Origin: an uncultured Bacteroidota bacterium
Lineage (GTDB): Bacteria; Bacteroidota; Rhodothermia; Rhodothermales; UBA10348
Direction: 5' to 3'
DNA length: 64,000 nucleotides
Assembly (NCBI GenBank): GCA_937876355.1
Contig: CALFHN010000145.1
Location: 55,195-119,194 of the forward strand
Each line of letters begins with the position of its first letter. Positions within the stretch are counted from its first letter, which is position 1. A program made the translations under genes and the position numbers. This document shows, one piece after another, positions 1 through 35,749 of the stretch. The notes beneath the pieces were generated by a model. The model did no database searches. It saw nothing but the letters and a program-made list of their open reading frames with translations, and was not told the DNA's origin.

Positions 1-441
1 TCTCTCTGCAATTGCTTTCAGGAAAGTACCATCCGATTGTGTGATCTGAAAAGAGAATCGTGAAATGAATTCCTGGCTGCGATTTTTCGAATCGTCCCAC
101 TCGAACGACGAAATACCTTGAAGGTGCTCAATAACGTTGCGTCGGCCCAGTTGAATGCTGTCTATGACACTCGAAAGAGACTCCATGGAAGCATCAGGCG
201 CAGTAGCGCCTCCTAATTCAGATACATGGACGCTCCATTCTTTCCTTGCCATTTCAACGTACATCTCGAGAAGAGAAGGTGCTGAATCCATCGGCTTCGC
301 CTCAATCTGGACCTGTGGGATGCGCATAAGCCATGGTCGCTCTGCCTCTAATTCATCGAGGAGATAGGATAGTTGATCCAGTATCTGATCTCTATTTGAA
401 CTAGCTGGTTGACTCGGTGATGGAGGGCCGGCAGAAGTCAT
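1..441 (-). CDS. hypothetical protein, possibly DinB-like helical fold (partial, runs off the window edge)
   Basis: Not in the ORF track. ATG at 441, 3 nt past the nuoI stop, opens MTSAGPPSPSQPASSNRDQILDQLSYLLDELEAERPWLMRIPQVQIEAKP..., with no stop before position 1. Confidence 0.6.
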   Translation of the reverse strand, partial: MTSAGPPSPSQPASSNRDQILDQLSYLLDELEAERPWLMRIPQVQIEAKPMDSAPSLLEMYVEMARKEWSVHVSELGGATAPDASMESLSSVIDSIQLGRRNVIEHLQGISSFEWDDSKNRSQEFISRFSFQITQSDGTFLKAIAER

Positions 442-444
442 GCT

Positions 445-1074
445 CTAGTGTTTTGCTTGGCTTTCCATATCCCGGGCTAGACCGGCTAAGAATGCACTGT
501 CTTTGAGCGAGTGTCGATTGTTAGAGCGCTGGTAATCCCAGGTTTCATTGCCAAACTGTGGATTCTGACGGGTGTGAAGGAAATCCAACCTGTCTGCTAG
601 TCGCTCTTTCGGCACAAGCAGCCTGTCCATTCCGAAAATGGCCTCGTCACGGTTCTGAAATGTCATATCGTATTCTTTTGACATGACAATAGCTTCTTCA
701 GGACACACTTCTTCGCAGAAACCACAGTAAATGCAGCGAAGCATATTAATTTCAAACCACTGTGGTTCACGCTCTTTTGGCCCCTCCATTTCCTGAGATT
801 GCATAGAAATGGCCATCGGTGGGCATGCTCTAGCGCAAAGATTGCACGAAACACATCTCGCCTTGCCATCTTCTTCAACCAAAACGGGCCGTCCGCGATA
901 GGAATCTGGTGGGTACCACTGCTCCTCTGGATACTGAAACGTATACATCGGCTCCTTGATCATCTTACGAAAAGAGTATCCAAGACCCTTAAACACTTCA
1001 GGAAGATACATTCTTTCCCAGAAGTTTAGAGTGCGCTCATTTTTTCGAGCCGTATTTACAGGAGTTCCAGCCAT
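445..1074 (-). CDS. nuoI: NADH-quinone oxidoreductase subunit I
   Basis: Two 4Fe-4S motifs ([24 protein letters not shown]); N-terminal ERMYLPE...TFQYPEE...YRG. Confidence 0.92.
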
Positions 1075-1173
1075 GGATTTTCTAATCTTAAGTCGACTTT
1101 ACAGGAAACGAAATATAGGACATTTGAAGCGTCCTGAATTGCGGAGGAGTTAATTCAACAACAGTTCAAGAGG

Positions 1174-2475
1174 CTACTTTTGCTTAAATACCATTTTGAT
1201 CGGTACTCCTTCAAACGAATACCAAATTCTGAGTTGATTTTCCAAATATCGCTGGTATGATTCCGCTACCCCTTTTGCGTAGTTCGTAAAGAAATTAAAT
1301 ACCGGAGGCGCGGTGCGTACTTGGGTTACAAATTTGATCTTCACCCGTTGATTACGATACAACGGCGGGGCATGGCGCTCGACCACGGTGGCTAAGAATT
1401 CATTGAGTTCCGAAGTAGAAATCCGCTTGTGGCGCTCCTTTTCGACATGAAGAACTTTGTCTAGGAGCTTATGAACCCGTTGTTTGGTAAACGCCGAAAT
1501 GGTAACGATCGGCACATAGTCTAGAGTTCTGAGGCGGTCTTTGACCATTGCCTCGTATTCCAGGACGGAATTTGTGTTCTTTTCGATCAGATCCCACTTG
1601 TTGATGGCAACGACCAATCCCTTTTTCATTTGTTCGGCCTGAGCCAACACTTTGATGTCTTGGGATTCCAAAGGCTCCGTTGCATCCAACATCAGCACCG
1701 CAACATCGCACGTTTCAATGGCCCGTTCCGTGCGTAAATAGGCGTAGAATTCAACGTTTTCTTTGACTTTTGCCCTTTTTCTAAGTCCCGCCGTATCGAC
1801 GAGAACCACTTCTTGTCCGTGATATTTCATGACGGAATCGACCGAATCCCTGGTCGTACCGCTTATTTCCGTTACTATTGAACGTTCCGTGCCTAATAAT
1901 GCATTCGTTAAAGAGGATTTTCCAACATTTGGCCGGCCAATAATGGCGATCCTAGTCCGAGAATCCTCTACTTCAGGTTCACTTTCCGGCAATAACTTAT
2001 TAACCGCATCAAGAAGGTCGCCGGTGCCCATTCCGTTAATTGAGCTCAGCGCATATACATGGTCGAATCCTAGTTCGTAAAGCGAATGCGCGTCCCAGCG
2101 CCTCTCGTCGTTATCCGCCTTATTTCCTACTACCAACACCGGACGATCGGACTTTCTCAATACCGATGCCATTTCTTGATCCAGATCAGTAACCCCTGTT
2201 GTCACGTCATTGACGAATAAAATCAGGTCTGCTTCTTGGATGGCCAAGTGAACTTGTTCTCGGATGGCGGCCTCAAAACGATCGGCCGAGTTGGGAACGA
2301 ACCCACCCGTATCCACAATGGAAAAAACGCGCCCTCCCCACTCAACATGGCCGTATATACGGTCCCTGGTTACCCCAGGCTCGTTGTGTACGATGGAATG
2401 GCGTTCTTCAGTTAGACGATTGAAAAAGGTGGATTTGCCCACATTAGGGCGACCCACAATAGCGACAAGTGGCAT
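1174..2475 (-). CDS. der: ribosome biogenesis GTPase Der (EngA)
   Basis: Two GRPNVGKS P-loops, DTGG/DTAG and NKAD/NKWD motifs, KH-like C-terminus. Confidence 0.97.
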   Translation of the reverse strand: MPLVAIVGRPNVGKSTFFNRLTEERHSIVHNEPGVTRDRIYGHVEWGGRVFSIVDTGGFVPNSADRFEAAIREQVHLAIQEADLILFVNDVTTGVTDLDQEMASVLRKSDRPVLVVGNKADNDERRWDAHSLYELGFDHVYALSSINGMGTGDLLDAVNKLLPESEPEVEDSRTRIAIIGRPNVGKSSLTNALLGTERSIVTEISGTTRDSVDSVMKYHGQEVVLVDTAGLRKRAKVKENVEFYAYLRTERAIETCDVAVLMLDATEPLESQDIKVLAQAEQMKKGLVVAINKWDLIEKNTNSVLEYEAMVKDRLRTLDYVPIVTISAFTKQRVHKLLDKVLHVEKERHKRISTSELNEFLATVVERHAPPLYRNQRVKIKFVTQVRTAPPVFNFFTNYAKGVAESYQRYLENQLRIWYSFEGVPIKMVFKQK

Positions 2476-2516
2476 TCGAATGCTTGCGATGATTCAGCCC
2501 GGAGGCCGTGATTGAG

Positions 2517-3332
2517 CTAGAGGCGCTCTTTACGCTCAATATACAGCGCGCGGAACAGCATAAATGCGGTTTCAGCAGTTTCTGTTGTGAACCAATAGTT
2601 GATTCCGGCACCAATTGCTGCTCCAGCGATAGGAATCATCTGGGCGATCTTCCTTCCACCGATATTTTTTGCAATTTCGCGAGGTAAATGACGATTCTGA
2701 TCTCTAAATGTCCCGCTTACGCGGCCTTTATAATCCGAAGAGTGCGCTAAAGCCGCTGCTGCCACCGTAATTTCACGCAAAGATGCGTTTTTAGACTCTC
2801 TTGATCCTGACGCCGCGACGTTAAATATGGATAAAACCAATGGGCCATGTGCTGGGCCACTTACGTCGAAACCGTACGCCGCTCCAATTTGTTGAATCAA
2901 ACGTAGGTTAATTCCAAATAAAAGTGGAATATCCGCTGCAATCAAAACGGCTCCACCGAGTCCTGTTCCTCCGCCCTCGACCGCGGCCATTATGGCATTT
3001 TCGGAAAAATAACTTTTGGAAAGCCCATCTAAAGTAGCTAGGTCGGCGCTTTGCAAGTCCGCAATGGTCTTTACATCAACGCCCCTTGCCTTGGCCGATT
3101 TAAGCACTTCAATGGGATCGTACGTCCACGTGGAGCCTTCATTTAATAGGGACAAGAATTTTGAGATCGATCTATCTACTTGATCGATAACCTCGTCCGG
3201 TACAACTCGCTCAATTACCCAATCCATCGGAGCCATGGCCCAGTTCATGGCCTGCGCCACTAACGAGGCATCGCCGTGCTGCCACTTTTCAATATCTCGT
3301 TGAACAGATCGTTCGTATTCAGTCAGTCGCAT
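2517..3332 (-). CDS. EcsC family protein
   Basis: EGGGTGLGG...ADIPLL...IGAAYGFD and IPIAGAAIGAGIN motifs. Confidence 0.8.
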   Translation of the reverse strand: MRLTEYERSVQRDIEKWQHGDASLVAQAMNWAMAPMDWVIERVVPDEVIDQVDRSISKFLSLLNEGSTWTYDPIEVLKSAKARGVDVKTIADLQSADLATLDGLSKSYFSENAIMAAVEGGGTGLGGAVLIAADIPLLFGINLRLIQQIGAAYGFDVSGPAHGPLVLSIFNVAASGSRESKNASLREITVAAAALAHSSDYKGRVSGTFRDQNRHLPREIAKNIGGRKIAQMIPIAGAAIGAGINYWFTTETAETAFMLFRALYIERKERL

Positions 3333-3397
3333 TGAGCGCTCCCTCTTTGAGTGTCAAGAAACGTGGGAGTTTACTTCGCTGAAAATGAGCTCAGGGG

Positions 3398-4888
3398 TTA
3401 ATCCATAATATCGAACTTTCGCAGTAATCGATACATGGTGGCTCTTCCGATCCCAAGCTCAACAGCCGCACGATCCACGTTGTGATCGCAAAGCCGATAT
3501 GCACGCTCCACAGCGCGCTGCTTAAGTTCTTCAAGCGATACGATGCCCCCATCGCCGTCTTCCAGAGAAATGTCTTCTTCGTCAAAGTCGTTTCCGGAAT
3601 AGGGTGTACTTACTGAATGGGATTCAGGTTGCGTCTTTTCGACTCGAGGTGCAGAGAAACTGGTTTCTGCCGCTTGCGCGAGTGTCATTCGTTCCGACCA
3701 AGGCGATATCGTGCCAAGATCAGATATCATTAAATCTGTTGCGCTTACTTCGGCTTCGTCGCTCAATAGGATTGCCCGTTCGATGGCGCTTTTCAGTTCG
3801 CGAATGTTTCCTGGCCAAGAATGGGCTGCAATAGCTCTTCTTGCTTCCGTTGAAAGTTTTTTACCTTTGAATTCGGGGTGCGATTTGGTGAATTCGCGGA
3901 AAAAATAATTGGAAAGCAGCAGCAAGTCTTGTCCTCGTTCCCGCAGTGGAGGTAACGGAACGGGAAACTGAAACAGCCGATAATACAGATCTTCTCTAAA
4001 TTTGTGTTCGCGAATCATCTGAACCACATCTTTATTTGTGGCGCTGATTACGCGTGCGCTAAAATCAATAGTGTCGCTTCCGCCGACCCGTGTAATTTCT
4101 CCCTCTTGTAGCGCTCGTAACAATTTGGCTTGGAGGTCGAGGTCCAATTCGCCAATTTCATCTAAAAAAATGGTGCCCCCATCGGCCTGTTCAAATTTGC
4201 CGATCTTTCGGGCATAGGCGCCCGTAAAGGACCCCTTTTCATGTCCAAAGAACTCGCTTTCCATCAAATCTCGTGGAATTGCTGCACAGTTCACAACCAC
4301 AAATGGGCCGCGCTTACGTCCTGAGGCGTAATGAATGGCTTTGGCTACTAATTCCTTACCCGTTCCACTTTCACCCTGAATTGCCACCATCAGGTCTCCC
4401 CGAGTGGCCTTTTCGATCATTCGATAGACATTGGTAATCGAAGGTGATTCGCCAATCATCCCACCAACTTGATATTTTTCACTCACTTCGGATCGAAGAC
4501 TGTCGACTTCTCTTTCCAAAGACACCTTCTCTAAGACATTCCGAACGATTGAATCGAGCTTAACCAAATCATCCTGACCCTTAGTGATATAGTCATAAGC
4601 GCCAATTTTCATTGCTTCCACGGCGGTGTCAATTACACCCTGTGCCGAAACCATGATAACGGGAATTTCTGGATGACGAGTCACCATTCGACGAAGCACT
4701 TCAACCCCATCAATGCCTGGCATCATGATGTCTAGAAGCATCAAATCTGGTTTTTCATCCAAACTTTTGAGCACTTCGTCTCCGCTGTGAAATACCTTTA
4801 CATGGTAGTTCGCATTTTTATCCAGTCGGTAGCTGAGCATTCGAGCATAATGCCTGTCATCGTCAACTACGAAAATGCGATATTTCAT
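3398..4888 (-). CDS. sigma-54-dependent NtrC-family response regulator (REC-AAA+-HTH)
   Basis: VVDDD / LLDIMMP receiver, GESGTGKE Walker A, GSFTGA, FLDEIGE, WPGNIREL, C-terminal Fis HTH (LGIGRATMYR). Start placed at MKYRIF (4888). Confidence 0.93.
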   Translation of the reverse strand: MKYRIFVVDDDRHYARMLSYRLDKNANYHVKVFHSGDEVLKSLDEKPDLMLLDIMMPGIDGVEVLRRMVTRHPEIPVIMVSAQGVIDTAVEAMKIGAYDYITKGQDDLVKLDSIVRNVLEKVSLEREVDSLRSEVSEKYQVGGMIGESPSITNVYRMIEKATRGDLMVAIQGESGTGKELVAKAIHYASGRKRGPFVVVNCAAIPRDLMESEFFGHEKGSFTGAYARKIGKFEQADGGTIFLDEIGELDLDLQAKLLRALQEGEITRVGGSDTIDFSARVISATNKDVVQMIREHKFREDLYYRLFQFPVPLPPLRERGQDLLLLSNYFFREFTKSHPEFKGKKLSTEARRAIAAHSWPGNIRELKSAIERAILLSDEAEVSATDLMISDLGTISPWSERMTLAQAAETSFSAPRVEKTQPESHSVSTPYSGNDFDEEDISLEDGDGGIVSLEELKQRAVERAYRLCDHNVDRAAVELGIGRATMYRLLRKFDIMD

Positions 4889-20886: not shown

Positions 20887-22200
20887 TTATTCGACAATGA
20901 TACACTCACCGGACTGAAACGCCTCTTGAAGAGCAGCTGTGACGTCAGAACGCAGTTCGTCGGCGTTTTGGTGCCGATCATTCATCACAGCTACCCCAAC
21001 GCTCACGCCACCAGGAAAGGACTCATGATCTTTTGGAAAACCTTCTTGAATTCGACTAGCCCACGCCGCTATTCCAGGATTGGCGCCGTGGTAAAAAACG
21101 CCGTATGTCAATTCACCAAATCGCTCGACTCTAGCATCGACTGCAACATTTTTTAACCGAGTGTAAAAAGCACTTTCAAGCTCAGAAACATCTTCTGAAC
21201 CATCTTCCCCACTGTTGAAATGCACCAATGCTAACGAAAGAGGATGATGCTCAGAACGCGCCCTTTCCATTTCTTCGGTAATGATTTCTCGCCGAGGTTT
21301 TAATGGAAGCGTAGCATCGAGGTCGGCCAATCCACCTTCCGCTTCTGTATCTAAAATGGTTGAAACCAAACGTGCATATTGTTCGAGTAAGACTCGTACA
21401 GAAGCGGCTTCAAGACCTACATCATTCATTGTATCCACCAACAAAATGAAAAGGTCGCCAAACTTCTTGGGTACCACCGGCACCATTGCGACTTGGCGGA
21501 CATTAATTTTTTCGTGGTAGTATCCTAGCTTCGTTTTGGGGAAACCGTTTGGACCTACTCTTGGATACACGACCGGTACCAAGGCTCTGTGTCCGGCCAA
21601 CATCGGCTCCTTAGCCGCATACGACCCTCCGTTTCGGGCATAGGAATTCTGGCTAATCATCACTTCGATATGGTATCGAAGGGGTATATCTTCCTGACGA
21701 AGCAAACATACGGTGTTGGCATCGATGGAAGCGCGTAGAGAATGCAAGGCGGGAATTAAAACGTCTGCGAACGACTGCGACGATGCCTCTGAGACCATAA
21801 TTCGGGACCGGGGCGCCATCGTCCTAGGTTTGCCAATTACGGGTGACTCAGCAGATCCAATGGGAATATCAGTCGGATTGGAGCTGAATTCATACGAATC
21901 GCCAACGGTGAAATCATCGAAGTCACCGTCAATTCCTTCCGTTTGTTTAGGGCCTCCTGAAGCCGAGTGGGCGGGCTTGATATCTACAATCCCAAGCGAG
22001 GCAAGGTCTTCCTCAGGTTGCTCTGGAGCGCGCATATATGCTCCTGGGGCATCTTTGTGACGTCGCCTCATTTTTGCAGTAATCACTGCCGCAGCCGCAA
22101 CAACAAGCACTACAGCTAAAACGTAAAGCCTCCAATCTCCCAGGACAATGGCCAATGAGACAGATACTATTGCTAGAATGATAAACAGAACGCGGAGCAT
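20887..22200 (-). CDS. membrane-anchored GAF-like plus degenerate GGDEF-like domain protein
   Basis: Two N-terminal TMs, acidic linker, GAF-like middle (QVAMVPV...ILLVD), C-terminal PLSLALVH...ERFGELTYGV...VSVGVA without a GGDEF motif. Confidence 0.6.
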   Translation of the reverse strand: MLRVLFIILAIVSVSLAIVLGDWRLYVLAVVLVVAAAAVITAKMRRRHKDAPGAYMRAPEQPEEDLASLGIVDIKPAHSASGGPKQTEGIDGDFDDFTVGDSYEFSSNPTDIPIGSAESPVIGKPRTMAPRSRIMVSEASSQSFADVLIPALHSLRASIDANTVCLLRQEDIPLRYHIEVMISQNSYARNGGSYAAKEPMLAGHRALVPVVYPRVGPNGFPKTKLGYYHEKINVRQVAMVPVVPKKFGDLFILLVDTMNDVGLEAASVRVLLEQYARLVSTILDTEAEGGLADLDATLPLKPRREIITEEMERARSEHHPLSLALVHFNSGEDGSEDVSELESAFYTRLKNVAVDARVERFGELTYGVFYHGANPGIAAWASRIQEGFPKDHESFPGGVSVGVAVMNDRHQNADELRSDVTAALQEAFQSGECIIVE

Positions 22201-22405
22201 CCGAGGTCCAAAAAGGATAAATGAATGACAAAATCTGCAGTCTTCGCAAGCTATTGGCGCCCATAGCAAAAGTCAATTAAACCTTAAATAGATATTGACT
22301 CTCTTTGATACAAATATCTCACTTTAATTGATATTCCTCTCACATTTGGGATGGGAAAACATCATTTGAACCATTTTACACGGTTTTGTGCAAAAATACG
22401 AGTTT

Positions 22406-26499: not shown

Positions 26500-26548
26500 G
26501 CGGCGGCTGGATTGGGTTTTTACCCAACCCAGCCGCCGCTTCCATTTT
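26500..26548. terminator. hairpin between convergent genes
   Basis: GCGGCGGCTGGATTGGGT-tttt-ACCCAACCCAGCCGCCGC followed by TTCCATTTT. Confidence 0.7.
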
Positions 26549-26570: not shown

Positions 26571-27701
26571 TTACTTTACAAAGGAATCCATTTCCGGAAG
26601 CCCTATTGGGACTTGCCCAGGTAGCGGGGCTTCGTTCATTTCGACCCAAATATCGCCACGGGTGGATTTCATAACTACCCCTTCGGCGTTGCGACCCAGC
26701 ACATAGTCGCGAGTTAGGGGCACTTTGCCAAAGGGCGTATCAAGAACATATTTCGGAATCGCAAAACCGGTTAGCCGACCCTGTAGTTCGTGCATGATGT
26801 GCATTCCGACTTCGATGGGCGTGCGAAGGTGCGCCGTTCCTCCAATAAGTTGGGCCTGATACAGATAATATGGCCTGATGCGCATGCGAACGAGGCCCTG
26901 ACAAAGTTCGCGCATCGTTTCAACCGAATCATTGATACCCTTAAGCAACACCGTTTGGTTACCAACCGGAACTCCAGCCCTGAGCAACCTGTCGATGGCC
27001 GCGCCCGCCTCTGGGGTCAGTTCATTTGGGTGATTGAAGTGGGTATTGAACCAAATTGGATGGTGTTTCGACAACACCTCACAAAGCTCGGGAGTAATGC
27101 GTTGTGGCAACTTGACGGGCATTCTCGAACCGATCCGGATTAGGTCGACGTGAGGAATAGCCCGAAGTTCAGTCAGGAGCCAATCAATGTTTGCGTCGCC
27201 AAGCGTTAGTGGATCGCCGCCGGTAAGCAGAACGTCTCGAATCTCGGAATGGGCCGCAATGTAGGCTATGGCCTCACGTAATTCGCCTTTTCGCATCATG
27301 AATTCGGCCTCGCCGACCATCCGTTTACGAAGGCAATACCTACAATAAATGGCGCACTGACTGGTCACACAAAAAGCGACCCGATCTGGATAGTTATGAA
27401 TTAAATTTTTGACCGGAGAATGGGCCACCTCCTCTAGCGGATCTTCCATTCCCACCACATCGGGTGCCAGTTCATCCATTAATGGCACAACTTGGCGACG
27501 AATCGGGCAGTTTGGATCCGATGGATCCATCAATGAAGCATAGTAGGGGGTGATGGACCACTGAAAAACGTCTTTTGTGGCCTCAATGGCCTCGGATTCC
27601 GTCTCAGAGGGTTGGATATACTCCCTCAAGGCCATCTCGGAATCAATCCGATGCCTCATGTGCCAACGCCAATCATTCCACTGTTCCGCCGTGTATTTCA
27701 A
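26571..27701 (-). CDS. KamA-family radical SAM/PLP amino-acid 2,3-aminomutase (substrate uncertain)
   Basis: WNDWRWH, ITPYY, YPDRV, CAIYCRYC, LTGGDPL, THFNHP, NQTVLLKGIND and PYYLYQ motifs; TTG start overlaps the upstream stop. Confidence 0.92.
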   Translation of the reverse strand: MKYTAEQWNDWRWHMRHRIDSEMALREYIQPSETESEAIEATKDVFQWSITPYYASLMDPSDPNCPIRRQVVPLMDELAPDVVGMEDPLEEVAHSPVKNLIHNYPDRVAFCVTSQCAIYCRYCLRKRMVGEAEFMMRKGELREAIAYIAAHSEIRDVLLTGGDPLTLGDANIDWLLTELRAIPHVDLIRIGSRMPVKLPQRITPELCEVLSKHHPIWFNTHFNHPNELTPEAGAAIDRLLRAGVPVGNQTVLLKGINDSVETMRELCQGLVRMRIRPYYLYQAQLIGGTAHLRTPIEVGMHIMHELQGRLTGFAIPKYVLDTPFGKVPLTRDYVLGRNAEGVVMKSTRGDIWVEMNEAPLPGQVPIGLPEMDSFVK

Positions 27702-28684
27702 GCCACAACCCTTTGAAACGCTTCCTTCAGTACACCAGCTAAAAATTCAGAGTACGGGACACCCTGTAATTCCGCCATTATAGCGAATGTCCCGTTTGGC
27801 GCAAAGGTTGGCAGAGGGTTAATCTCCAAAAACCACTCTTTCCCTTTTGAATCGACTCGAAAATCGATTCGGGCGAAATCTTTGCACTCCAATTTGTGAA
27901 AGATGGTTAGTGCCGAGGCTTGAAGTCGGGCTTCTAATTCGGAAGTCAGCACTCCGGGTAAGCTGAACGAGTAGTCCTGCTCAGGTAGGCCTTTTCGGTC
28001 TAGGACATGAAGTCCGATTCCCGTATCTGTTTCTATGGCTCTTTGGATGACGGGCAGTGTACGCGCCGGATTGTGACCAATTACCGCAACCGTATACTCG
28101 CTACCTTCAACAAATTCTTCAACCAAAACATCCTGACCGTAATTCGAAGTGATGTCACTTACTTGGTTACGTAACTCCTGAATCGACTGCACTTTGCTGG
28201 CTATCGTTAGTCCTTTTGCAGAACCCTCGTACCTAGGCTTCACAAAAAGCGGAAATCTGCGCGGAAGGCGTAAACAATCAACTTCTTCATTTTCACAAAA
28301 AACGGCATAGTTAGGTGTGAACAAACCAGCACTGACGGCCAAATCTTTGGTCCAGACTTTGTCTAAACTCAGCGACAACGTGAGCGCATCCGAACCAATA
28401 AAAGGGACCCCCATCATTTCCAATAACGTTGGCGCTTCTCCTTCTCTATTACGTCCCCGTCCTCCTTCTGCAATATTGATGGCTACGTCAAAATCCGGAT
28501 TATCCATGCGAGACAATAGGTTACGGGCCGGACCTACGCGAAGAGGTTCGTGATTTAAGGCTCTAATAGCAGACTCGAGAGCCAGCACGGTCTCTTCCGG
28601 TTCGTTTTCTACGTCTGCATCGAACGCCTCGCCTTGGATCCAAGGGTAATCTTCAAATAAATCGTATATCAGTCCGACTCGCAT
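27698..28684 (-). CDS. D-Ala-D-Ala-ligase-like ATP-grasp amino-acid ligase
   Basis: NIAEG...RE, PFIGSD...LDK, FVKPRYEGSAKG, VEEFVEG, ARIDFR and LEINPLP motifs. Start placed at MRVGLIYD. Confidence 0.88.
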   Translation of the reverse strand: MRVGLIYDLFEDYPWIQGEAFDADVENEPEETVLALESAIRALNHEPLRVGPARNLLSRMDNPDFDVAINIAEGGRGRNREGEAPTLLEMMGVPFIGSDALTLSLSLDKVWTKDLAVSAGLFTPNYAVFCENEEVDCLRLPRRFPLFVKPRYEGSAKGLTIASKVQSIQELRNQVSDITSNYGQDVLVEEFVEGSEYTVAVIGHNPARTLPVIQRAIETDTGIGLHVLDRKGLPEQDYSFSLPGVLTSELEARLQASALTIFHKLECKDFARIDFRVDSKGKEWFLEINPLPTFAPNGTFAIMAELQGVPYSEFLAGVLKEAFQRVVA

Positions 28685-28818
28685 GGTTCTAATCGTCGAA
28701 AAATGATCTCTGTTGTAGAAATAAATGATCCTGAGCCATACTACGAACACTGGTTCTTTTTGTGCGAACCATCTATACTCTCTATCTACAATTCACCAAG
28801 GTCTTACAACATTCTGAA

Positions 28819-29664
28819 ATGGCACCCTTCTCAAATATTCAGCCCAACCTCGGGTCCTCCTCCAGCATCGCCGTATTGTTGGTGATGGCTTTTGCCATCA
28901 CCAGCTGCAATCAGCAACAAGGACCGGCTTCACTTTCATTTCCTGAGGGCTCCTTGGTAGATATGTCGTACGCGTATAATGAAAACACTATCTACTGGCC
29001 AACGGCTCCGGGTTTTGTCAAATCGACCGATTTTGAAGGTGTAACTGAAGGAGGTTTTTACTACACCGCGTATTCATTTAGCTCCGCTGAACATGGTGGG
29101 ACACATTTGGATGCGCCAGTTCACTTTGCCGAAGGGAAACACTCGAATGATCAGATTCCGTTAGAGAGCTTGATGGGAAACGCAATAGTAATCGATGTCC
29201 AGGTGCAAGCTGCCGAAAATCGAGATTATCTGATTTCAACTGCTGACATCGCAACGTGGGAGGCTGAAAATGGGGCGATACCAGATGGCTCTATCGTTTT
29301 ATTCCGAACAGGATTTGGGAAGTTCTGGCCTGATCGCGAATCGTATATGGGCACCGCAGTACTCGGAACAGAAGGGGTCGCTCTGCTGCATTTCCCAGGA
29401 ATTGACCCGTCTGTGGCAACTCTACTTGCCACCGAACGCACTATCAAAGCCGTCGGAATCGATACACCAAGCATCGATTTTGGTCAGTCTACCCTATTTG
29501 AGACCCATCAAAACTTATTTAGCGCCAACATTCCGGCATTCGAAAACGTTGCCAATTTGGATAAATTGCCTGTCACCGGTGCCTTGGTTATCGCGTTGCC
29601 GATGAAAATCGAAGGGGGCAGCGGCGGCCCACTCCGAATGGTAGGAATCATTCCAAATAACTAG
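28819..29664 (+). CDS. cyclase family (kynurenine-formamidase-like) metal hydrolase, lipoprotein
   Basis: EHGGTHLDAPVHF, HFPG, GIDTPSID, FENVANL and GGSGGPLR motifs; lipobox ITSC. Confidence 0.9.
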   Translation: MAPFSNIQPNLGSSSSIAVLLVMAFAITSCNQQQGPASLSFPEGSLVDMSYAYNENTIYWPTAPGFVKSTDFEGVTEGGFYYTAYSFSSAEHGGTHLDAPVHFAEGKHSNDQIPLESLMGNAIVIDVQVQAAENRDYLISTADIATWEAENGAIPDGSIVLFRTGFGKFWPDRESYMGTAVLGTEGVALLHFPGIDPSVATLLATERTIKAVGIDTPSIDFGQSTLFETHQNLFSANIPAFENVANLDKLPVTGALVIALPMKIEGGSGGPLRMVGIIPNN

Positions 29665-29713: not shown

Positions 29714-29744
29714 TAGCAATTTTAGTCCCTAGCAATTTTAGTCC
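29714..29744. repeat. two-copy direct repeat (16-bp period) at the cusA stop
   Basis: TAGCAATTTTAGTCC at 29714-29728 and 29730-29744. Confidence 0.85.
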
Positions 29745-32700
29745 GCCGCAATTGGCTGTGGAATGTCAGCAGTTTTTAATCCAATTTGTCGTTCCCGCCA
29801 GACGTAATAGATAACGGGGATAACAATTAGAGTAAGCACCGTCGATGATATCATTCCCCCAATCATCGGGGCGGCTATTCGTCGCATTACTTCAGAGCCC
29901 GTGCCGTGTCCCCACATGATGGGAAGCAGCCCCGCCATAATCGTGACTACGGTCATCATTTTGGGCCGGACTCTTTCAACTGCTCCGTGTACCACGGCAG
30001 CATATAAGTCCTTGACTCCTGTCATGGCACCGTTCTTTATTCCGGCTTTATACGCTTGGTCGAGATAAATCAACATGATCACACCGGTTTCGGCCGCCAC
30101 GCCCGCTAGAGCAATAAACCCGACCCCAACGGCCACACTAAGATTGTACTCCAACAAATAGATCAACCAGACACCACCGACCGCGGCAAATGGCACTGAA
30201 AGCATCACAATCAAACTTTCTTGTACGCTACGGAAATTTAAATAGAGGAGCATAAAAATGACAAATATGGTAAACGGGATGACCAATTTTAACCGTTCTT
30301 TGGCTCGCTCCATATATTCGTATTGACCACTCCAAACCAAGGAATATCCGGCTGGCAACACGATGTTCTGAGAGACGACTTCTTTCGCCCCATTCACATA
30401 GGTCCCGATGTCAATATCCCTGATATCCACGTAGACCCAGGCCGTACGACGTGCGTTTTCGCTTTTGATCACGGACGGACCCTTGGTTAATTCCATTTTG
30501 GCCACGTAACTAAGAGGAATTTGATTGCCTCTCGGCGTAGCAATTAAGACCCGTTCAAGTTCGACCAAATTATCCCTGGTCTCGCGAGAATATCGGACAT
30601 TGACAGGATATCGCTCAAGCCCTTCAACCGTTTGGGTCACGTTCATCCCTCCGATGGCAGACATAATGACGTCTTGCACATCCCCAACCGTTAGCCCGTA
30701 CCGGGCGGCTTCAAGTCGATCAATTTTCCAATCCAAAAAATTACCACTTACAGGCTTGTCTGGAAATGCGCTCAGTGTACCTGGAACGTCTGCCAGTAAA
30801 ACGGCAACATCCGACGTAAGCTTCGACAATACCTCTAAATCTGGCCCCATAATCTTGATTCCAACCGGCGTCTTAATACCAGTAGAAAGCATATCAATGC
30901 GTGTTTTGATCGGCATGGTCCATGCATTGGTCAAGCCTGGAAATTGAATCGCTGCGTCTAATTCATCGATTAATTTTTCTACGGTCATTCCGTCACGCCA
31001 TTCCTCTTGTGGCCGGAGCATAATGGTGGTTTCCATCATTGATAGAGGAGCTGGATCTGTGGCCGTCTCGGCACGACCGACTTTTCCAAAAACGTGATGA
31101 ACTTCCGGAAACGTCATCAGAATCCGGTCGGTTTGTTGAACTAATTCGCGCGCTTTTGTGATACTAATGCCCGGGTCCGTGGTGGGCATGTACAGGATGT
31201 CGCCTTCGTTCAGCGCTGGCATAAACTCAGATCCCAGCTTAGAAAGGGGCCAAAAGGTTACTAAAAGTACTACTGTAGAAAGGGCGATAGTCCACCATTT
31301 AAATCTCAGAGCGACTTTGATACAAGGATTGTAAATCCGTTGAAAGAAAAGATTAATTGGGTTTTTCTTTTCTGGAATTATCCGTCCTTTAATGAAGTAT
31401 CCCATGAGCACTGGGACCACCGTGATGGCCAACAATGCGGCAGCAGCCATTGCGTAGGACTTGGTGTAGGCCAATGGCTTGAACAGCTTGCCCTCCTGAC
31501 CCTGAAGAGAAAATACCGGTAAAAACGACAGGGTGATGATTAAAAGGGAATAGAACAATGCGGGTCCTACTTCTTTGGAAGCGTCAATCACGATCTGCCA
31601 GTGGTCCTTTTTACCAGCGTCGACTTCTAGATGCTTGTGCATGTTTTCTATCATCACAATGGCAGCATCAACCATCGCCCCAATGGCTATAGCTATCCCC
31701 GCAAGGGACATGATGTTGGCGCTTAATCCTTGGGAGTACATGATTATGAAAGCAATCAGTATGCTCATGGGAAGAGAAAAAACAGCTACAAAAGCGCTTC
31801 GGAAATGAAGGAGAAACAACAACACTATCAACGTGACTACAATTATCTCCTCAAGCAATTTATTTTTCAAATTGTCGATTGCTCGGTGAATTAAGCTGGA
31901 GCGGTCATATGCTGATTTGATGGTCACCCCTTCCGGAAGACCAGCTTGCAATTGCTCTAATTTCCGCTTTACACCTTCGATGGTCGCTAGTGCGTTTGCA
32001 CCGTAACGCATTACCACGATTCCACCGACCGCCTCCCCTTCGCCATTCCATTCCACCAATCCTCGCCTGAGTTCAGGGCCTATGTGTACATTTGCTACAT
32101 TTTTTATGAGAATGGGTGTCCCCGTTCCATCAACTCCAACAGGCACGTTTTCGATATCTTCGATCGATTTGATATATCCCAAGCCGCGAACCATGAATTC
32201 GGTTTCTCCCATCTCAACTAATCTGCCGCCAACGTCAGCATTAGATCTAGTGAGCGCTACTCGCACCTTGCTCAGCGGAATACCATAAGCTTGAAGTCGA
32301 TTGGGATCGACTTCCACTTGATATTGTTTGACATATCCTCCAATAGATGCGACTTCAGAAACGCCTGGAACGCTGGTCAACTCGTACCTTAAAAACCAAT
32401 CTTGAATCGTTCGAAGTTGTTGCAAATCGTATTTATCCCCACCATCCAGCACGTATTCGTACACCCAACCTACTCCGGTGGCATCGGGGCCCAACGACGG
32501 AGTAATCCCAGCCGGCATTCTGCCAGAAGCGAAATTCAGGTACTCTAGTACCCGACTCCGAGCCCAATACATGTCCGTGCCTTCCTCAAAAATGATGTAG
32601 ACAAAAGACAATCCAAACATGGAATACCCCCGGACCGTCTTGGCAAACGGGACAGAAAGCATGGCCGTTGTAAGCGGATATGTAACTTGATCTTCAATGA

Positions 32701-32878
32701 CTTGCGGTGCTTGGCCCGGAAATTCTGTGAAGATGATGACTTGAACATCTGATAGATCGGGAATAGCGTCGACAGACGTATTCATGACGGCATACCATCC
32801 TACCAGTGCCGTAAGGCCGGCCAAAACCAGGACCATGATCCGATTGTGGACTGAAAATTCAATAATTCGTTCTAACAT
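29738..32878 (-). CDS. cusA: CusA/CzcA heavy-metal RND efflux pump (CusA-like)
   Basis: DAIPDLSDVQVI, GPDATGVGWVYEY, LYMPTT, PAPLSMMET, AWTMPIKTRIDML and RVRPKMMT; Met ligands typical of Cu/Ag pumps. Confidence 0.95.
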   Translation of the reverse strand: MLERIIEFSVHNRIMVLVLAGLTALVGWYAVMNTSVDAIPDLSDVQVIIFTEFPGQAPQVIEDQVTYPLTTAMLSVPFAKTVRGYSMFGLSFVYIIFEEGTDMYWARSRVLEYLNFASGRMPAGITPSLGPDATGVGWVYEYVLDGGDKYDLQQLRTIQDWFLRYELTSVPGVSEVASIGGYVKQYQVEVDPNRLQAYGIPLSKVRVALTRSNADVGGRLVEMGETEFMVRGLGYIKSIEDIENVPVGVDGTGTPILIKNVANVHIGPELRRGLVEWNGEGEAVGGIVVMRYGANALATIEGVKRKLEQLQAGLPEGVTIKSAYDRSSLIHRAIDNLKNKLLEEIIVVTLIVLLFLLHFRSAFVAVFSLPMSILIAFIIMYSQGLSANIMSLAGIAIAIGAMVDAAIVMIENMHKHLEVDAGKKDHWQIVIDASKEVGPALFYSLLIITLSFLPVFSLQGQEGKLFKPLAYTKSYAMAAAALLAITVVPVLMGYFIKGRIIPEKKNPINLFFQRIYNPCIKVALRFKWWTIALSTVVLLVTFWPLSKLGSEFMPALNEGDILYMPTTDPGISITKARELVQQTDRILMTFPEVHHVFGKVGRAETATDPAPLSMMETTIMLRPQEEWRDGMTVEKLIDELDAAIQFPGLTNAWTMPIKTRIDMLSTGIKTPVGIKIMGPDLEVLSKLTSDVAVLLADVPGTLSAFPDKPVSGNFLDWKIDRLEAARYGLTVGDVQDVIMSAIGGMNVTQTVEGLERYPVNVRYSRETRDNLVELERVLIATPRGNQIPLSYVAKMELTKGPSVIKSENARRTAWVYVDIRDIDIGTYVNGAKEVVSQNIVLPAGYSLVWSGQYEYMERAKERLKLVIPFTIFVIFMLLYLNFRSVQESLIVMLSVPFAAVGGVWLIYLLEYNLSVAVGVGFIALAGVAAETGVIMLIYLDQAYKAGIKNGAMTGVKDLYAAVVHGAVERVRPKMMTVVTIMAGLLPIMWGHGTGSEVMRRIAAPMIGGMISSTVLTLIVIPVIYYVWRERQIGLKTADIPQPIAAD

Positions 32879-32908
32879 TGGAAAACTCCGGATTCAGATC
32901 GACTAAAA

Positions 32909-34333
32909 TTAGTGGTCGTGCGCTTGAGTGGCGCCTTTTGTTGAGTCAGGGGGTGAAATCGGCTTGATCTCCATTTCTGACATCTCCTTTTCTGACATCT
33001 CCGTTTTTGAGTGGTCCATTTTGGATACATCGCCGGGTACACTTCCAGAAACACCGGCCTGATTGCTTCTCATTTTTTGAATCGCTTCCTGCAATCGACT
33101 TTCAGACGCAATCAAAAATTGCGCGGACGTCACGACTTGCTCGCCAGCCTCTAAGCCGCTGACAATATGAGTCAAGCCGTTGCCTGGCCCACCTTCGCTC
33201 CCGATCTGCACCGCTCGAGGTTCAAACGAGCCATTCTCGGAGGTCACGAATACTAAAGAGCGTTTGCCAGATCTGATGATTGCTTCTGATGGAACCACCA
33301 CCACATTTTTTAGCGTTTTGCCTGTGAGCTGCACGTTGGCGAACATACCAGGTTTAAGCTCCCTATCGGAATTCGAAACTACAATTCGGACATGAACATC
33401 CCTGGCTTGGTCTCTCAACACTGGATATATGTAGGACACGACCCCCTTATAAACTCTGCCTGGCAGGTAGCTAAGTTCTACCTCTACGGACTGCCCGAGA
33501 TTTATCCATGGAAGTTCATAGTCGTAGAAACTAGCATGGACCCATACCTGACTTAGATCAGCGATGCGAAATACATTGCTCCCTTTATTGATGAATCCGC
33601 CCTCTATGATGTCTTTTTGCAATACAATGCCAGACACGGGCGCAGAAACCGTGACAGCCTGTTGGACTTTTCTGGTGTGATTCAAATGTTCTACTATTTC
33701 AGGCGAAATTTCCCAGTTTAAGAGGCGCGTTTTTGAAGCTTCGACGAGTCGCCTCGCCCCTTGTACTACAGTTTCATTTGAGCCATCGGCAAGTGATTCG
33801 AGATATTCCAACGAGCGAATGTACTCCTCTTGCGTGGCCACCAGCTCGGGGGAATAGATATCGAAGAGAGGATCTCCCTTTTTGACAGTCGCTCCTTCAT
33901 AACCAACATGCAGCGTATTCACCCATCCAGAAACGCGGGCATTTACGTTAACCACGGTCTCGTCATTAACATTGATTTCGCCCACCGTTCTAATGAGTCG
34001 ATCTAAATCCATTCTATGAACTTGGCCGTATCGAACACCCATTTGCTGGGATACGACATCGTTGATCATAACACTTCCGGCAGATCGCGCAGGAAGATCT
34101 TCTTCATATACTGGTACCAGATCCATATTCATGCTTGATTTGCCCGGAGCATCGTATATCTCGGTCGGATCCATGGGTGCGCGCCAATACAGAACTTTTG
34201 ATTCAGCATTTGAAGTTTCAGCAACAGGATCTGCAATTTTATTTTCATCCGAAGAGGTGCGGCCCAGCCAATACCCCCCGACGGTAGTCACTAAGATCAG
34301 AGCAACTATATACACGTAATGAATACTTTTCAT
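32909..34333 (-). CDS. cusB: CusB-like RND periplasmic adaptor
   Basis: YWRAPMDP...PGKSSMNMDLVP metal-binding N-domain, IYSPELVATQEEY and LKPGMFA; Met/His-rich tail. Confidence 0.92.
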   Translation of the reverse strand: MKSIHYVYIVALILVTTVGGYWLGRTSSDENKIADPVAETSNAESKVLYWRAPMDPTEIYDAPGKSSMNMDLVPVYEEDLPARSAGSVMINDVVSQQMGVRYGQVHRMDLDRLIRTVGEINVNDETVVNVNARVSGWVNTLHVGYEGATVKKGDPLFDIYSPELVATQEEYIRSLEYLESLADGSNETVVQGARRLVEASKTRLLNWEISPEIVEHLNHTRKVQQAVTVSAPVSGIVLQKDIIEGGFINKGSNVFRIADLSQVWVHASFYDYELPWINLGQSVEVELSYLPGRVYKGVVSYIYPVLRDQARDVHVRIVVSNSDRELKPGMFANVQLTGKTLKNVVVVPSEAIIRSGKRSLVFVTSENGSFEPRAVQIGSEGGPGNGLTHIVSGLEAGEQVVTSAQFLIASESRLQEAIQKMRSNQAGVSGSVPGDVSKMDHSKTEMSEKEMSEMEIKPISPPDSTKGATQAHDH

Positions 34334-34345
34334 GATTTCAGCCAG

Positions 34346-35749
34346 TTAAAATTGTTCTGATATGAGTCTGTTCAAACGACCTGATATGCGATCGAGCATA
34401 AGTTGTCCTGCTCCTAGTCGTTTGAACAATTCAATTCGTTCCATCTCAAGTTGGAACCGAGTACGCTCGGCATCCAATAGGTCCAAAAAGTCCCCTCTTG
34501 CGCTTGAATAGGAAAAAACGGAAGATTCTATCAACGCCTCAGCGGAGGGTAACAAGGATGAATTGATGTGATCAATGGACTTTCGATCGAAAATAGTATT
34601 GGAATTGACTTCAGTGAAAAGGTCCTCGATGGACTGTTTCGATGACTCAATTTGTTCTCCAATTGCCCTTATCTGGAGTTGCGATTCCTCCTTTTTGGAT
34701 CGGTATGAGGATTGACCCAGCGGTATTTTGACAGATACTCCAATAGCTAAGGCGTCTCTGCCATCGGAAGACGCGGGCATGTCGGACTTCACTATTCCAA
34801 TCCAGTTCAGGCTAACCCCAAAATCAGGACGGTTATAGTACTCGATTAAATGTTTTTGTGAAGTAGCTAGATCCAAAGACCGGGAAAGAGCTCGCAAGTC
34901 GCTGCGGCTCTCTAATTCCAGAGTGGCCTGATCAGGACCATCAATTCCCGGATCACCCCTCGGAGCTCCGTCCAAACTCAATCCTGTTGATTCCAATTTG
35001 ATTGGCCGCTGCACCAAGCGTTCAATAAGTAGCTTTTTCGCTTCGATCACTCTTAGAAATTCCAAATTTGATTGGTCTAAGCGGGCCCGCTCCAACTGGA
35101 TTTTTAGTACAGACTGCTGATTGCCCTCCCCAACTTCATATTTTCGAAGAGCCAAATCCTCGTATCCATCCAAGCGCTCTTGAAATCTCCTGTTAACGGC
35201 CCTCAACGCTGTAAATTTATTGATTTCGTTCAATGCCAGTTGACCTTCCAAAATGGCTTCAACTGCAAATGATTGGACTTTATCGGTTCCAATTTCAGCC
35301 TCGATCACGGCCATTTTCCGCATCAACGCCAGTTTTCCAGGATACGGGATCATTTGCTCCACACGTATTCCGAGCACTTGTTTGCCTCTGGCCGTATAAA
35401 CGGGCAAGGGTTGCCCGGTAACCATTAGAGTTGGATCTGGAAATGCCCCGACATAACGCTCTCGCACCATTTGGGCCTCTGCAGAGCTACGGAGCGACTG
35501 AATAGCCTGATTCGACTGCAAAATCGAACGAATCAGATCGTTTTGGGTGGAAATAAGAACGGTGTCAGCGATCGCGGTGTCTGAGGTCGCGGCTTGGAAG
35601 GCGATCATGGCTTGTAAGGCCACGCCCTCGAAACCAGCAACTGGTTCTCGCGGCTCGTCAAGCACAAAAAAGGATGGAGCTGCGAAAACAGGAGAAGATT
35701 GAAGAAGTCCCACCCATAAAAGGGTAAGGAATATTCGAGAAACGGACAT
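34346..35749 (-). CDS. TolC/CusC family outer-membrane efflux protein
   Basis: FPDPTL, EQMIPYPGKL, YEVG, DFLDLLDAER; in an operon with cusBA. Confidence 0.9.
   Translation of the reverse strand: MSVSRIFLTLLWVGLLQSSPVFAAPSFFVLDEPREPVAGFEGVALQAMIAFQAATSDTAIADTVLISTQNDLIRSILQSNQAIQSLRSSAEAQMVRERYVGAFPDPTLMVTGQPLPVYTARGKQVLGIRVEQMIPYPGKLALMRKMAVIEAEIGTDKVQSFAVEAILEGQLALNEINKFTALRAVNRRFQERLDGYEDLALRKYEVGEGNQQSVLKIQLERARLDQSNLEFLRVIEAKKLLIERLVQRPIKLESTGLSLDGAPRGDPGIDGPDQATLELESRSDLRALSRSLDLATSQKHLIEYYNRPDFGVSLNWIGIVKSDMPASSDGRDALAIGVSVKIPLGQSSYRSKKEESQLQIRAIGEQIESSKQSIEDLFTEVNSNTIFDRKSIDHINSSLLPSAEALIESSVFSYSSARGDFLDLLDAERTRFQLEMERIELFKRLGAGQLMLDRISGRLNRLISEQF

Follow-up and report, generated by a model that had tools for sequence, protein, structure and literature searches.

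A gene for a Ddl-like ATP-grasp ligase and a gene for a KamA-family radical S-adenosylmethionine (SAM)/pyridoxal 5'-phosphate (PLP) 2,3-aminomutase lie together on the minus strand of a 64,000-nucleotide stretch (hereafter the window) of contig CALFHN010000145.1, positions 55,195 to 119,194, from an uncultured Bacteroidota bacterium of the order Rhodothermales. The source genome of the contig measures 2.9 Mb and is 92% complete, its close relatives bear Rhodothermales or Bacteroidota labels, and the DNA of the window occurs in seawater metagenomes. The ligase gene stands first in the pair (27698..28684, minus strand). Its longest open reading frame (ORF) spans 27698-28750(-), and its homologues, 324-340 amino acids (aa) long and aligned from residue 1, start at the ATG at 28684, giving a protein of 328 aa. 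The aminomutase gene (26571..27701, minus strand) encodes 376 aa from a TTG start and carries a substrate pocket designated class 1 below. A preliminary description of this DNA had placed the ligase stop over the aminomutase start, and the overlap is confirmed: the letters TTGA at 27698..27701 (minus strand) are shared by the ligase TGA (27700-27698) and the aminomutase TTG (27701-27699), an arrangement read in the sequence as translational coupling. The TTG is the earliest possible start in its frame and the next ATG is M14; because the conserved WxDWRW motif occupies residues 8-13, upstream of M14, the coupled TTG start is required. The genes of the pair also overlap or abut in three further loci (L003, L004 and L008). 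Beginning 32 nt past the aminomutase stop, an 18-bp hairpin with one G-U pair and an AAAA loop (26500..26539, minus strand) can be read in the sequence as the probable transcript end; it has no T tail, which is why the consensus terminator scan left it unlisted. Together, these features outline a two-gene operon that, on the reading developed here as a whole, probably serves a dedicated small pathway.

The aminomutase aligns with the lysine 2,3-aminomutase (LAM) of Clostridium subterminale (PDB 2A5H) over residues 7-351 (E 3e-112), retaining the CxxxCxxC motif, the subsequent Arg, the GGD motif and the PLP lysine. Within the same alignment, HRYPDR reads HNYPDR, YQCD reads YQAQ, and the PLP-lysine loop DAPGGGGK is shortened by two residues to DTP--FGK, confirming the three changes and the intact CxxxCxxC and Arg listed in the preliminary description. 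The first lysine-binding Asp site is thereby occupied by Gln284, while the second Asp is kept as D321. Additionally, the Cys of the LAM motif GVNDCVH aligns with Ser, and the short C-terminal tail contains no Cys; the GVNDCVH Cys and the tail Cys of LAM presumably constitute its zinc site. These last two changes, like a second KamA-like gene with a GNAT gene elsewhere in the genome, had been omitted from the preliminary description. The cluster cysteines C116, C120 and C123 and the PLP lysine K326 are invariant in the class-1 clade. Moreover, an alignment of 35 clade members (down to 41% identity) shows no variation at Q282, Q284, D321, T322, P323, G325 and K326, with N103 conserved in at least 90% of them, and the class-1 PLP loop usually carries an aromatic residue (F, Y or H). 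Because they are invariant across clade members, the motif changes define a family rather than noise.

As described in section 18 of PMC3965090, lysine is bound by two Asp residues in LAM, and Lys and Asn replace both of them in glutamate 2,3-aminomutase, in agreement with the preliminary description; the same section records unannotated clusters in the aminomutase subgroup. The window enzyme departs from both arrangements, since Gln284 at the first site breaks the two-Asp pattern of the lysine type and its pocket sites read Gln and Asp rather than the Lys and Asn of the glutamate type. This pairing of a Gln with a kept Asp, already said in the preliminary description to fit neither pattern, matches the pocket of no lysine, arginine or glutamate enzyme.

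Family models agree with this picture. The aminomutase passes the generic KamA model TIGR00238 (342.2 bits, cut-off 199.2) but falls below all equivalog cut-offs: the arginine model TIGR04468, its best-scoring equivalog (451.8 bits against 600), the lysine model TIGR03820 (443.6 against 525.4), the glutamate model TIGR04368 (441.4 against 650) and the EpmB model (253.3 against 369.3). Pockets were compared across 82 loci, two from the source genome and 80 fetched from species-representative genomes. Class 1 (HNY / CLRKR / YQAQ or YQAN / DTP--xGK) accounts for 24 of these and the canonical pocket (HRY / Y[QN]CD / DAPxGGGK) for 34; a pocket designated class 3 (FQCDEV / DLxxGGGK) occurs in 18 loci from Dehalococcoidales and other Chloroflexota, the arginine-type pocket (HKY / YHCDN / TTP--LGK) in five, and the remaining locus is the source genome's own second KamA-like copy. 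Many more pocket variants are present among 150 representatives at 50% identity, indicating a large pocket diversity in the KamA family.

The clades were anchored with proteins passing curated cut-offs, namely P0123 and L023 for arginine, P0124, P0127, P0133, P0134 and L024 for lysine, and P0144 for glutamate; none of six EpmB candidates reached the EpmB cut-off. In a careful tree of 45 rows (LG+C20 PMSF), class 1 forms a separate clade (support 99/96) that also holds P0122, P0177, the fused P0149 and P0162, with the arginine 2,3-aminomutases as its sister (support 86/74). The arginine and class-1 clades are separated with support of 100 and 99, and the window enzyme lies beside, not inside, the arginine clade of P0123 and L023. 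A quick tree of 72 rows recovers the same clades with an unresolved backbone. Approximately unbiased (AU) tests rejected no union of class 1 with the arginine, glutamate or lysine enzymes (p-AU 0.35 for the lysine union), and the constrained trees differed from the free quick tree by +29 (arginine), +12 (glutamate) and -15 (lysine) log-likelihood units (lnL). The careful tree is relied on here because constrained searches gave better trees than the quick free search, which was therefore suboptimal. As judged from these alignments, scores and trees, the aminomutase is outside every characterised clade, contrary to the refuting case envisaged in the preliminary description, and its nearest characterised relatives are the arginine 2,3-aminomutases.

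The ligase matches the Pfam family Dala_Dala_lig_C (2.3e-30) and shares the ATP-grasp fold of Ddl, but it reaches only 144 bits against the Ddl model TIGR01205 (cut-off 245.65) and lies below every Ddl cut-off, while a true Ddl encoded elsewhere in the genome (C120:14329-15432) scores 266.9 bits against the same TIGR01205 cut-off. Aligned with the genome's own Ddl, the ligase retains the nucleotide and Mg core motifs (Lys, Arg/Asp, Glu/Asn), whereas DAxxENEPEET stands where Ddl has its GGxSxE-type N-terminal motif and AEGxRxRNRE where it has HGxxGE, with further differences in the loop and in the C-terminal substrate motifs. In Ddl, the motifs replaced here bind the substrate. The replacement motifs are common to aminomutase-linked ligases. 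The window ligase belongs to a clade of such ligases (support 99), and the clades formed by the ligase partners mirror the aminomutase classes (support 99, 95 and 99). Clusters of the ESM Atlas describe the ligase only as generic 'Ddl family', and public records name it 'D-alanine--D-alanine ligase', while entries for the aminomutase are split between lysine and arginine 2,3-aminomutase. By the scores and motifs compared here, the D-Ala-D-Ala ligase of the cell is a different protein, and none of these three enzyme names is supported for the pair.

The two genes are strongly associated. Among class-1 loci, the ligase lies directly upstream in 18 of 24; one of the others has a ligase fragment at a contig edge, one lacks upstream room, three come from genomes carrying the ligase elsewhere (44-47% identity), and in the last, from a 2.3-Mb genome, no ligase was found. 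Canonical loci have no ligase neighbour (0/34). Class-3 loci have one downstream in 17 of 18, the eighteenth ending about 100 nt past the aminomutase match, and arginine-type loci have one upstream in three of five. In an even class sample of 151 genomes (aminomutase E <= 1e-60, ligase E <= 1e-50), in which kin are not independent and pairing counts are descriptive, the aminomutase occurs in 52 genomes and the ligase in 51, all of them within the 52; the lone aminomutase genome without a ligase is a 220-contig assembly, and the 99 genomes lacking the aminomutase yielded no ligase. By hand count, the two genes are adjacent (<0.5 kb) in 35 of the 51, 0.8-3 kb apart in four and unlinked in 12, with the gene order reversed in two genomes (G107 and G115). 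Presence is all-or-none by family, as in f1 (13/14), f2 (5/5) and f8 (8/9) against f9 (0/17), f12 (0/8) and f18 (0/66).

Moreover, the two enzymes occur as fusions. In G136, from the family of the source genome, a single 844-aa frame encodes the ligase and then the aminomutase, joined by a linker of about 20 residues. Eight of 25 long representatives are aminomutase/ligase fusions carrying Dala_Dala_lig_C, three at the N terminus and five at the C terminus, and one of the fusions, P0149, falls in the class-1 clade. Because the genes are co-inherited when unlinked and are also fused, the ligase and the aminomutase can be strongly argued to act in one pathway, and the loss of pairing in relatives that could have overturned the preliminary description is not observed. 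A complex prediction for the two proteins, each supplied as an alignment, returned a score of 0.00 and is evidence neither way. The other long representatives include three proteins with a GNAT domain, one with an S66 peptidase and one with an intein. In the last, P0186, the intein (Intein_splicing, LAGLIDADG) lies inside the CxxxCxxC motif of a KamA-family protein. In P0185, a KamA-family domain is fused to an S66 LD-carboxypeptidase with both Pfam halves, which hints that some family members may act on peptide or muropeptide-like substrates.

Divergent from the pair lies a gene for a PF04199 'putative cyclase' resembling kynurenine formamidase (28762-29664, plus strand); its homologues align only from about residue 35-45, and its true start is probably later than the GTG at 28762. 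A CusA/CzcA-type resistance-nodulation-division (RND) heavy-metal efflux operon occupies 29738-35749 on the minus strand, with genes for a permease (1227 bits to TIGR00914), an outer-membrane factor and a membrane-fusion protein that carries a heavy-metal-binding domain. At 20887-22269 (minus strand) lies a gene for a 460-aa protein whose N terminus is hydrophobic and whose sequence matched nothing in Pfam or the PDB; in many genera of Rhodothermales this protein is encoded immediately after the aminomutase, at 38-40% identity across families. Further neighbours in the window encode a type IX secretion system (T9SS) cargo protein and a metalloenzyme. The pair does stand alone, as the preliminary description had it, in that no lysine-fermentation, efp or epmA gene occurs among its neighbours and no GNAT gene within about 7 kb.

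Two of these neighbours were considered as third partners and rejected. The cyclase gene is syntenic in the family of the source genome and adjacent in 10 of 22 loci (21 fetched plus the window); it occurs in 59 of the 151 genomes. Among these are members of f9 (12/17) and f18 (15/66), families that yielded no pair, and the pair-bearing families f3, f5, f8 and f14 yielded no cyclase gene. The 460-aa protein occurs in 70 of the 151, including families without the pair, and was not found in the pair-bearing families f14, f16, f19 and f20. A phosphodiesterase encoded beside unlinked ligases (L092 and L094) is not homologous to the product of either downstream window gene, and other neighbours of the pair vary between loci. 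In two lineages, MscS-type channel genes lie beside the pair (L005:131-820(+), L006:4077-4901(+) and L020:6905-7945(-)); those in L005 and L006 are upstream on the same strand, in L005 only 35 nt from the ligase.

Elsewhere in the source genome, locus L002 (G000:C126:7851-11906) contains a divergent KamA-like gene (ORF 1255-2787(+), 510 aa) with YQHD and DAPGGGGK motifs, scoring 260 bits to AblA and 234 to the KamA model. A GNAT gene follows 15 nt on (ORF 2802-3710(+); 186 bits, the GNAT_ablB cut-off being 205.1), and after it a membrane protein gene. From its motifs and scores, L002 is probably an AblA/AblB-like acetyl-beta-lysine module. Because the genome thus holds a KamA-like gene with a two-Asp (D/D) pocket and a near-cut-off GNAT_ablB, lysine-to-beta-lysine chemistry is plausibly already covered. 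Elongation factor P (EF-P) is present in the genome, whereas no EpmA above cut-off was found there, the best match being a 523-aa frame at 239.9 bits against 286.9. Searches of this 92%-complete genome found neither MPG synthase nor OtsA families, and a search for ectoine genes, whose control matched in no genome, returned a blank that carries no weight. In a separate locus, L085 (G000:C104:2012-5812), ORF 433-2334(+) encodes a 633-aa protein in which a class-I SAM methyltransferase domain is joined to a Ddl-like ATP-grasp domain scoring below the Ddl cut-offs, and is followed by a gene for a Na+/H+ exchanger with a TrkA-N domain (ORF 2359-3801(+)).

Comparison with known systems brings out what is shared and what is distinctive. 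BlsG of blasticidin S biosynthesis is taken here to be an arginine 2,3-aminomutase (TIGR04468). The arginine enzymes resemble class 1 in a PLP-lysine loop two residues shorter (TTP--LGK there, DTP--FGK in class 1), and their Anaerolineae members also adjoin a related ATP-grasp gene; they differ in having Asp at the first site (YHCD) and Thr at the second, where class 1 has Gln and Asp, and in reading HKY and CTRKY/F instead of HNY and CLRKR. With LAM (KamA/AblA, 2A5H), class 1 shares the fold and cofactor motifs and presumably the radical/PLP 1,2-amino shift, but it is set apart by the Gln in place of the YQCD Asp, the shorter loop, HNY, the Ser in place of the zinc Cys and the Cys-less tail, and the window pair is not accompanied by fermentation genes or a GNAT gene. 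The AblA/AblB system, which makes the compatible solute N-epsilon-acetyl-beta-lysine, is likewise a two-gene unit of an aminomutase and an amide-capping enzyme; here, however, the second enzyme is an ATP-grasp ligase instead of a GNAT, the pocket is not of the lysine type, and a separate AblA/AblB-like pair (L002) exists in the same genome. Modules uniting KamA and Ddl-like ATP-grasp families, adjacent or fused, occur in many phyla. In most of these wider modules the pocket is of the D/D lysine type, and two ligases plus a GNAT are often present; the class-1 pair, by contrast, combines a non-lysine pocket with a single ligase and lacks a GNAT. Since it represents one class within this wider family of aminomutase/ATP-grasp modules, the pair is less singular than the preliminary description suggests. 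Among the publications listed by full-text literature searches, none deals with an aminomutase/ATP-grasp pair, and a search around beta-arginine, blasticidin and BlsI brought up no ligase.

The reading favoured here, with moderate confidence, is that the pair would form a two-enzyme route to an amide-linked beta-amino-acid compound. By homology, the aminomutase would bind a free L-amino acid as a PLP aldimine on Lys326, while the [4Fe-4S] cluster held by C116, C120 and C123 would act with SAM to generate the 5'-deoxyadenosyl radical; the alpha-amino group would then be moved to C3, yielding a beta-amino acid. The Ddl-like ATP-grasp enzyme would subsequently activate a carboxylate as an acyl phosphate and form an amide containing the beta-amino acid. 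A basic amino acid other than lysine, such as arginine, ornithine or a similar compound, is the most likely substrate, although this is a guess; it is favoured by the retention of one Asp and by the sister position of the arginine 2,3-aminomutases. The end product would probably be a small soluble compound, for which a compatible solute, analogous to that of AblA/AblB, is the leading idea. Such an osmolyte role is weakly suggested by the MscS neighbours, the marine habitat, and the MPG synthase and OtsA families not having been found.

Several observations weigh against this two-enzyme route or blur its outline. The family backbone is weak, the arginine enzymes are joined to class 1 with a support of only 86/74, and the AU tests reject nothing. 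As far as the compared loci indicate, no third gene travels with the pair, so no transporter, regulator or acetyltransferase hints at its role, and MscS neighbours occur in only three of the 24 class-1 loci. Whole families (f9, f12 and f18) yielded no pair, a distribution that fits an accessory role without identifying it. Gln plus one Asp could, in addition, still bind lysine. This last point leads to the alternative that the enzyme is a lysine 2,3-aminomutase after all, with the pair making a beta-lysine amide in the manner of the wider D/D KamA and Ddl-like modules. The lysine and arginine models score it almost equally (444 and 452 bits), one Asp is retained, union with the lysine clade has a p-AU of 0.35, and the Dehalococcoidales class-3 aminomutases, which have D/D pockets, adjoin related ligases. 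Yet both Asp residues are present in all 34 canonical loci and in every anchor passing the lysine cut-off, while Gln284 is invariant in class 1; the score stays under the lysine cut-off, the lysine-constrained tree is 15 lnL worse, and the same genome holds another KamA-like gene, of the D/D pocket type, next to one for an AblB-like GNAT. Collectively, these points render a lysine substrate unlikely.

A macromolecular target is a distinctly unlikely alternative, in which the beta-amino acid would be placed on a protein, by EpmA/EF-P-like modification or RimK-type tailing, or on a cell-envelope precursor. ATP-grasp enzymes do modify proteins, P0185 joins KamA to an S66 LD-carboxypeptidase, and sequence conservation of the aminomutase is high (full-length matches in the class sample share 62-89% identity with the query); set against this, no EpmA scores above cut-off, 99 of the 151 class genomes yielded no pair although EF-P is present in the source genome, and across the 44 class-1 loci examined the pair has no conserved envelope gene as a neighbour. 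The order of the two steps could also be reversed, the ligase first building a side-chain conjugate with a free alpha-amino acid end on which the aminomutase would then shift the amino group. The ligase gene does come first in the operon, and the alignment suggests that the short loop and the Asp-to-Gln change could admit and hydrogen-bond an amide-bearing side chain. However, gene order is flipped in G107, G115 and 17 class-3 loci, and to our knowledge no KamA-family enzyme acts on a conjugate; this order is considered quite unlikely. Finally, the genes might be unrelated neighbours, with the ATP-grasp gene a spare cell-wall D-Ala-D-Ala ligase, as its name in the records and the alignment of its core motifs with Ddl would allow; this explanation is close to refuted by a score under every Ddl cut-off where another gene of the genome passes, by N-terminal and loop motifs differing from those of the genome's own Ddl, and by strict co-occurrence even when unlinked, together with the fusions.

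In the two-enzyme route favoured here, the compound made by the pair has not been described. What the present analysis adds is a defined non-lysine pocket class that is placed by the arginine enzymes, is strictly co-inherited with a ligase clade of its own and coexists with an AblA/AblB-like pair; it also corrects the annotation, as the public names of both enzymes lack support here. Since homologues are named in records of the cultured genera Rhodothermus, Rubrivirga, Longibacter and Rhodocaloribacter, the question is open to direct testing. Three substrate specificities are curated for KamA-family aminomutases, and class 1 may, tentatively, represent a fourth after lysine, arginine and glutamate, its product being a beta-amino acid new to primary metabolism (beta-ornithine or another basic or amide-bearing one) that the ligase would convert into a new dipeptide-like compatible solute in marine or saline Rhodothermales and some Balneolales. 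An invariant, different pocket combined with an obligate ligase provides a defined target in the search for a new beta-amino acid and a new natural amide, possibly an osmolyte.

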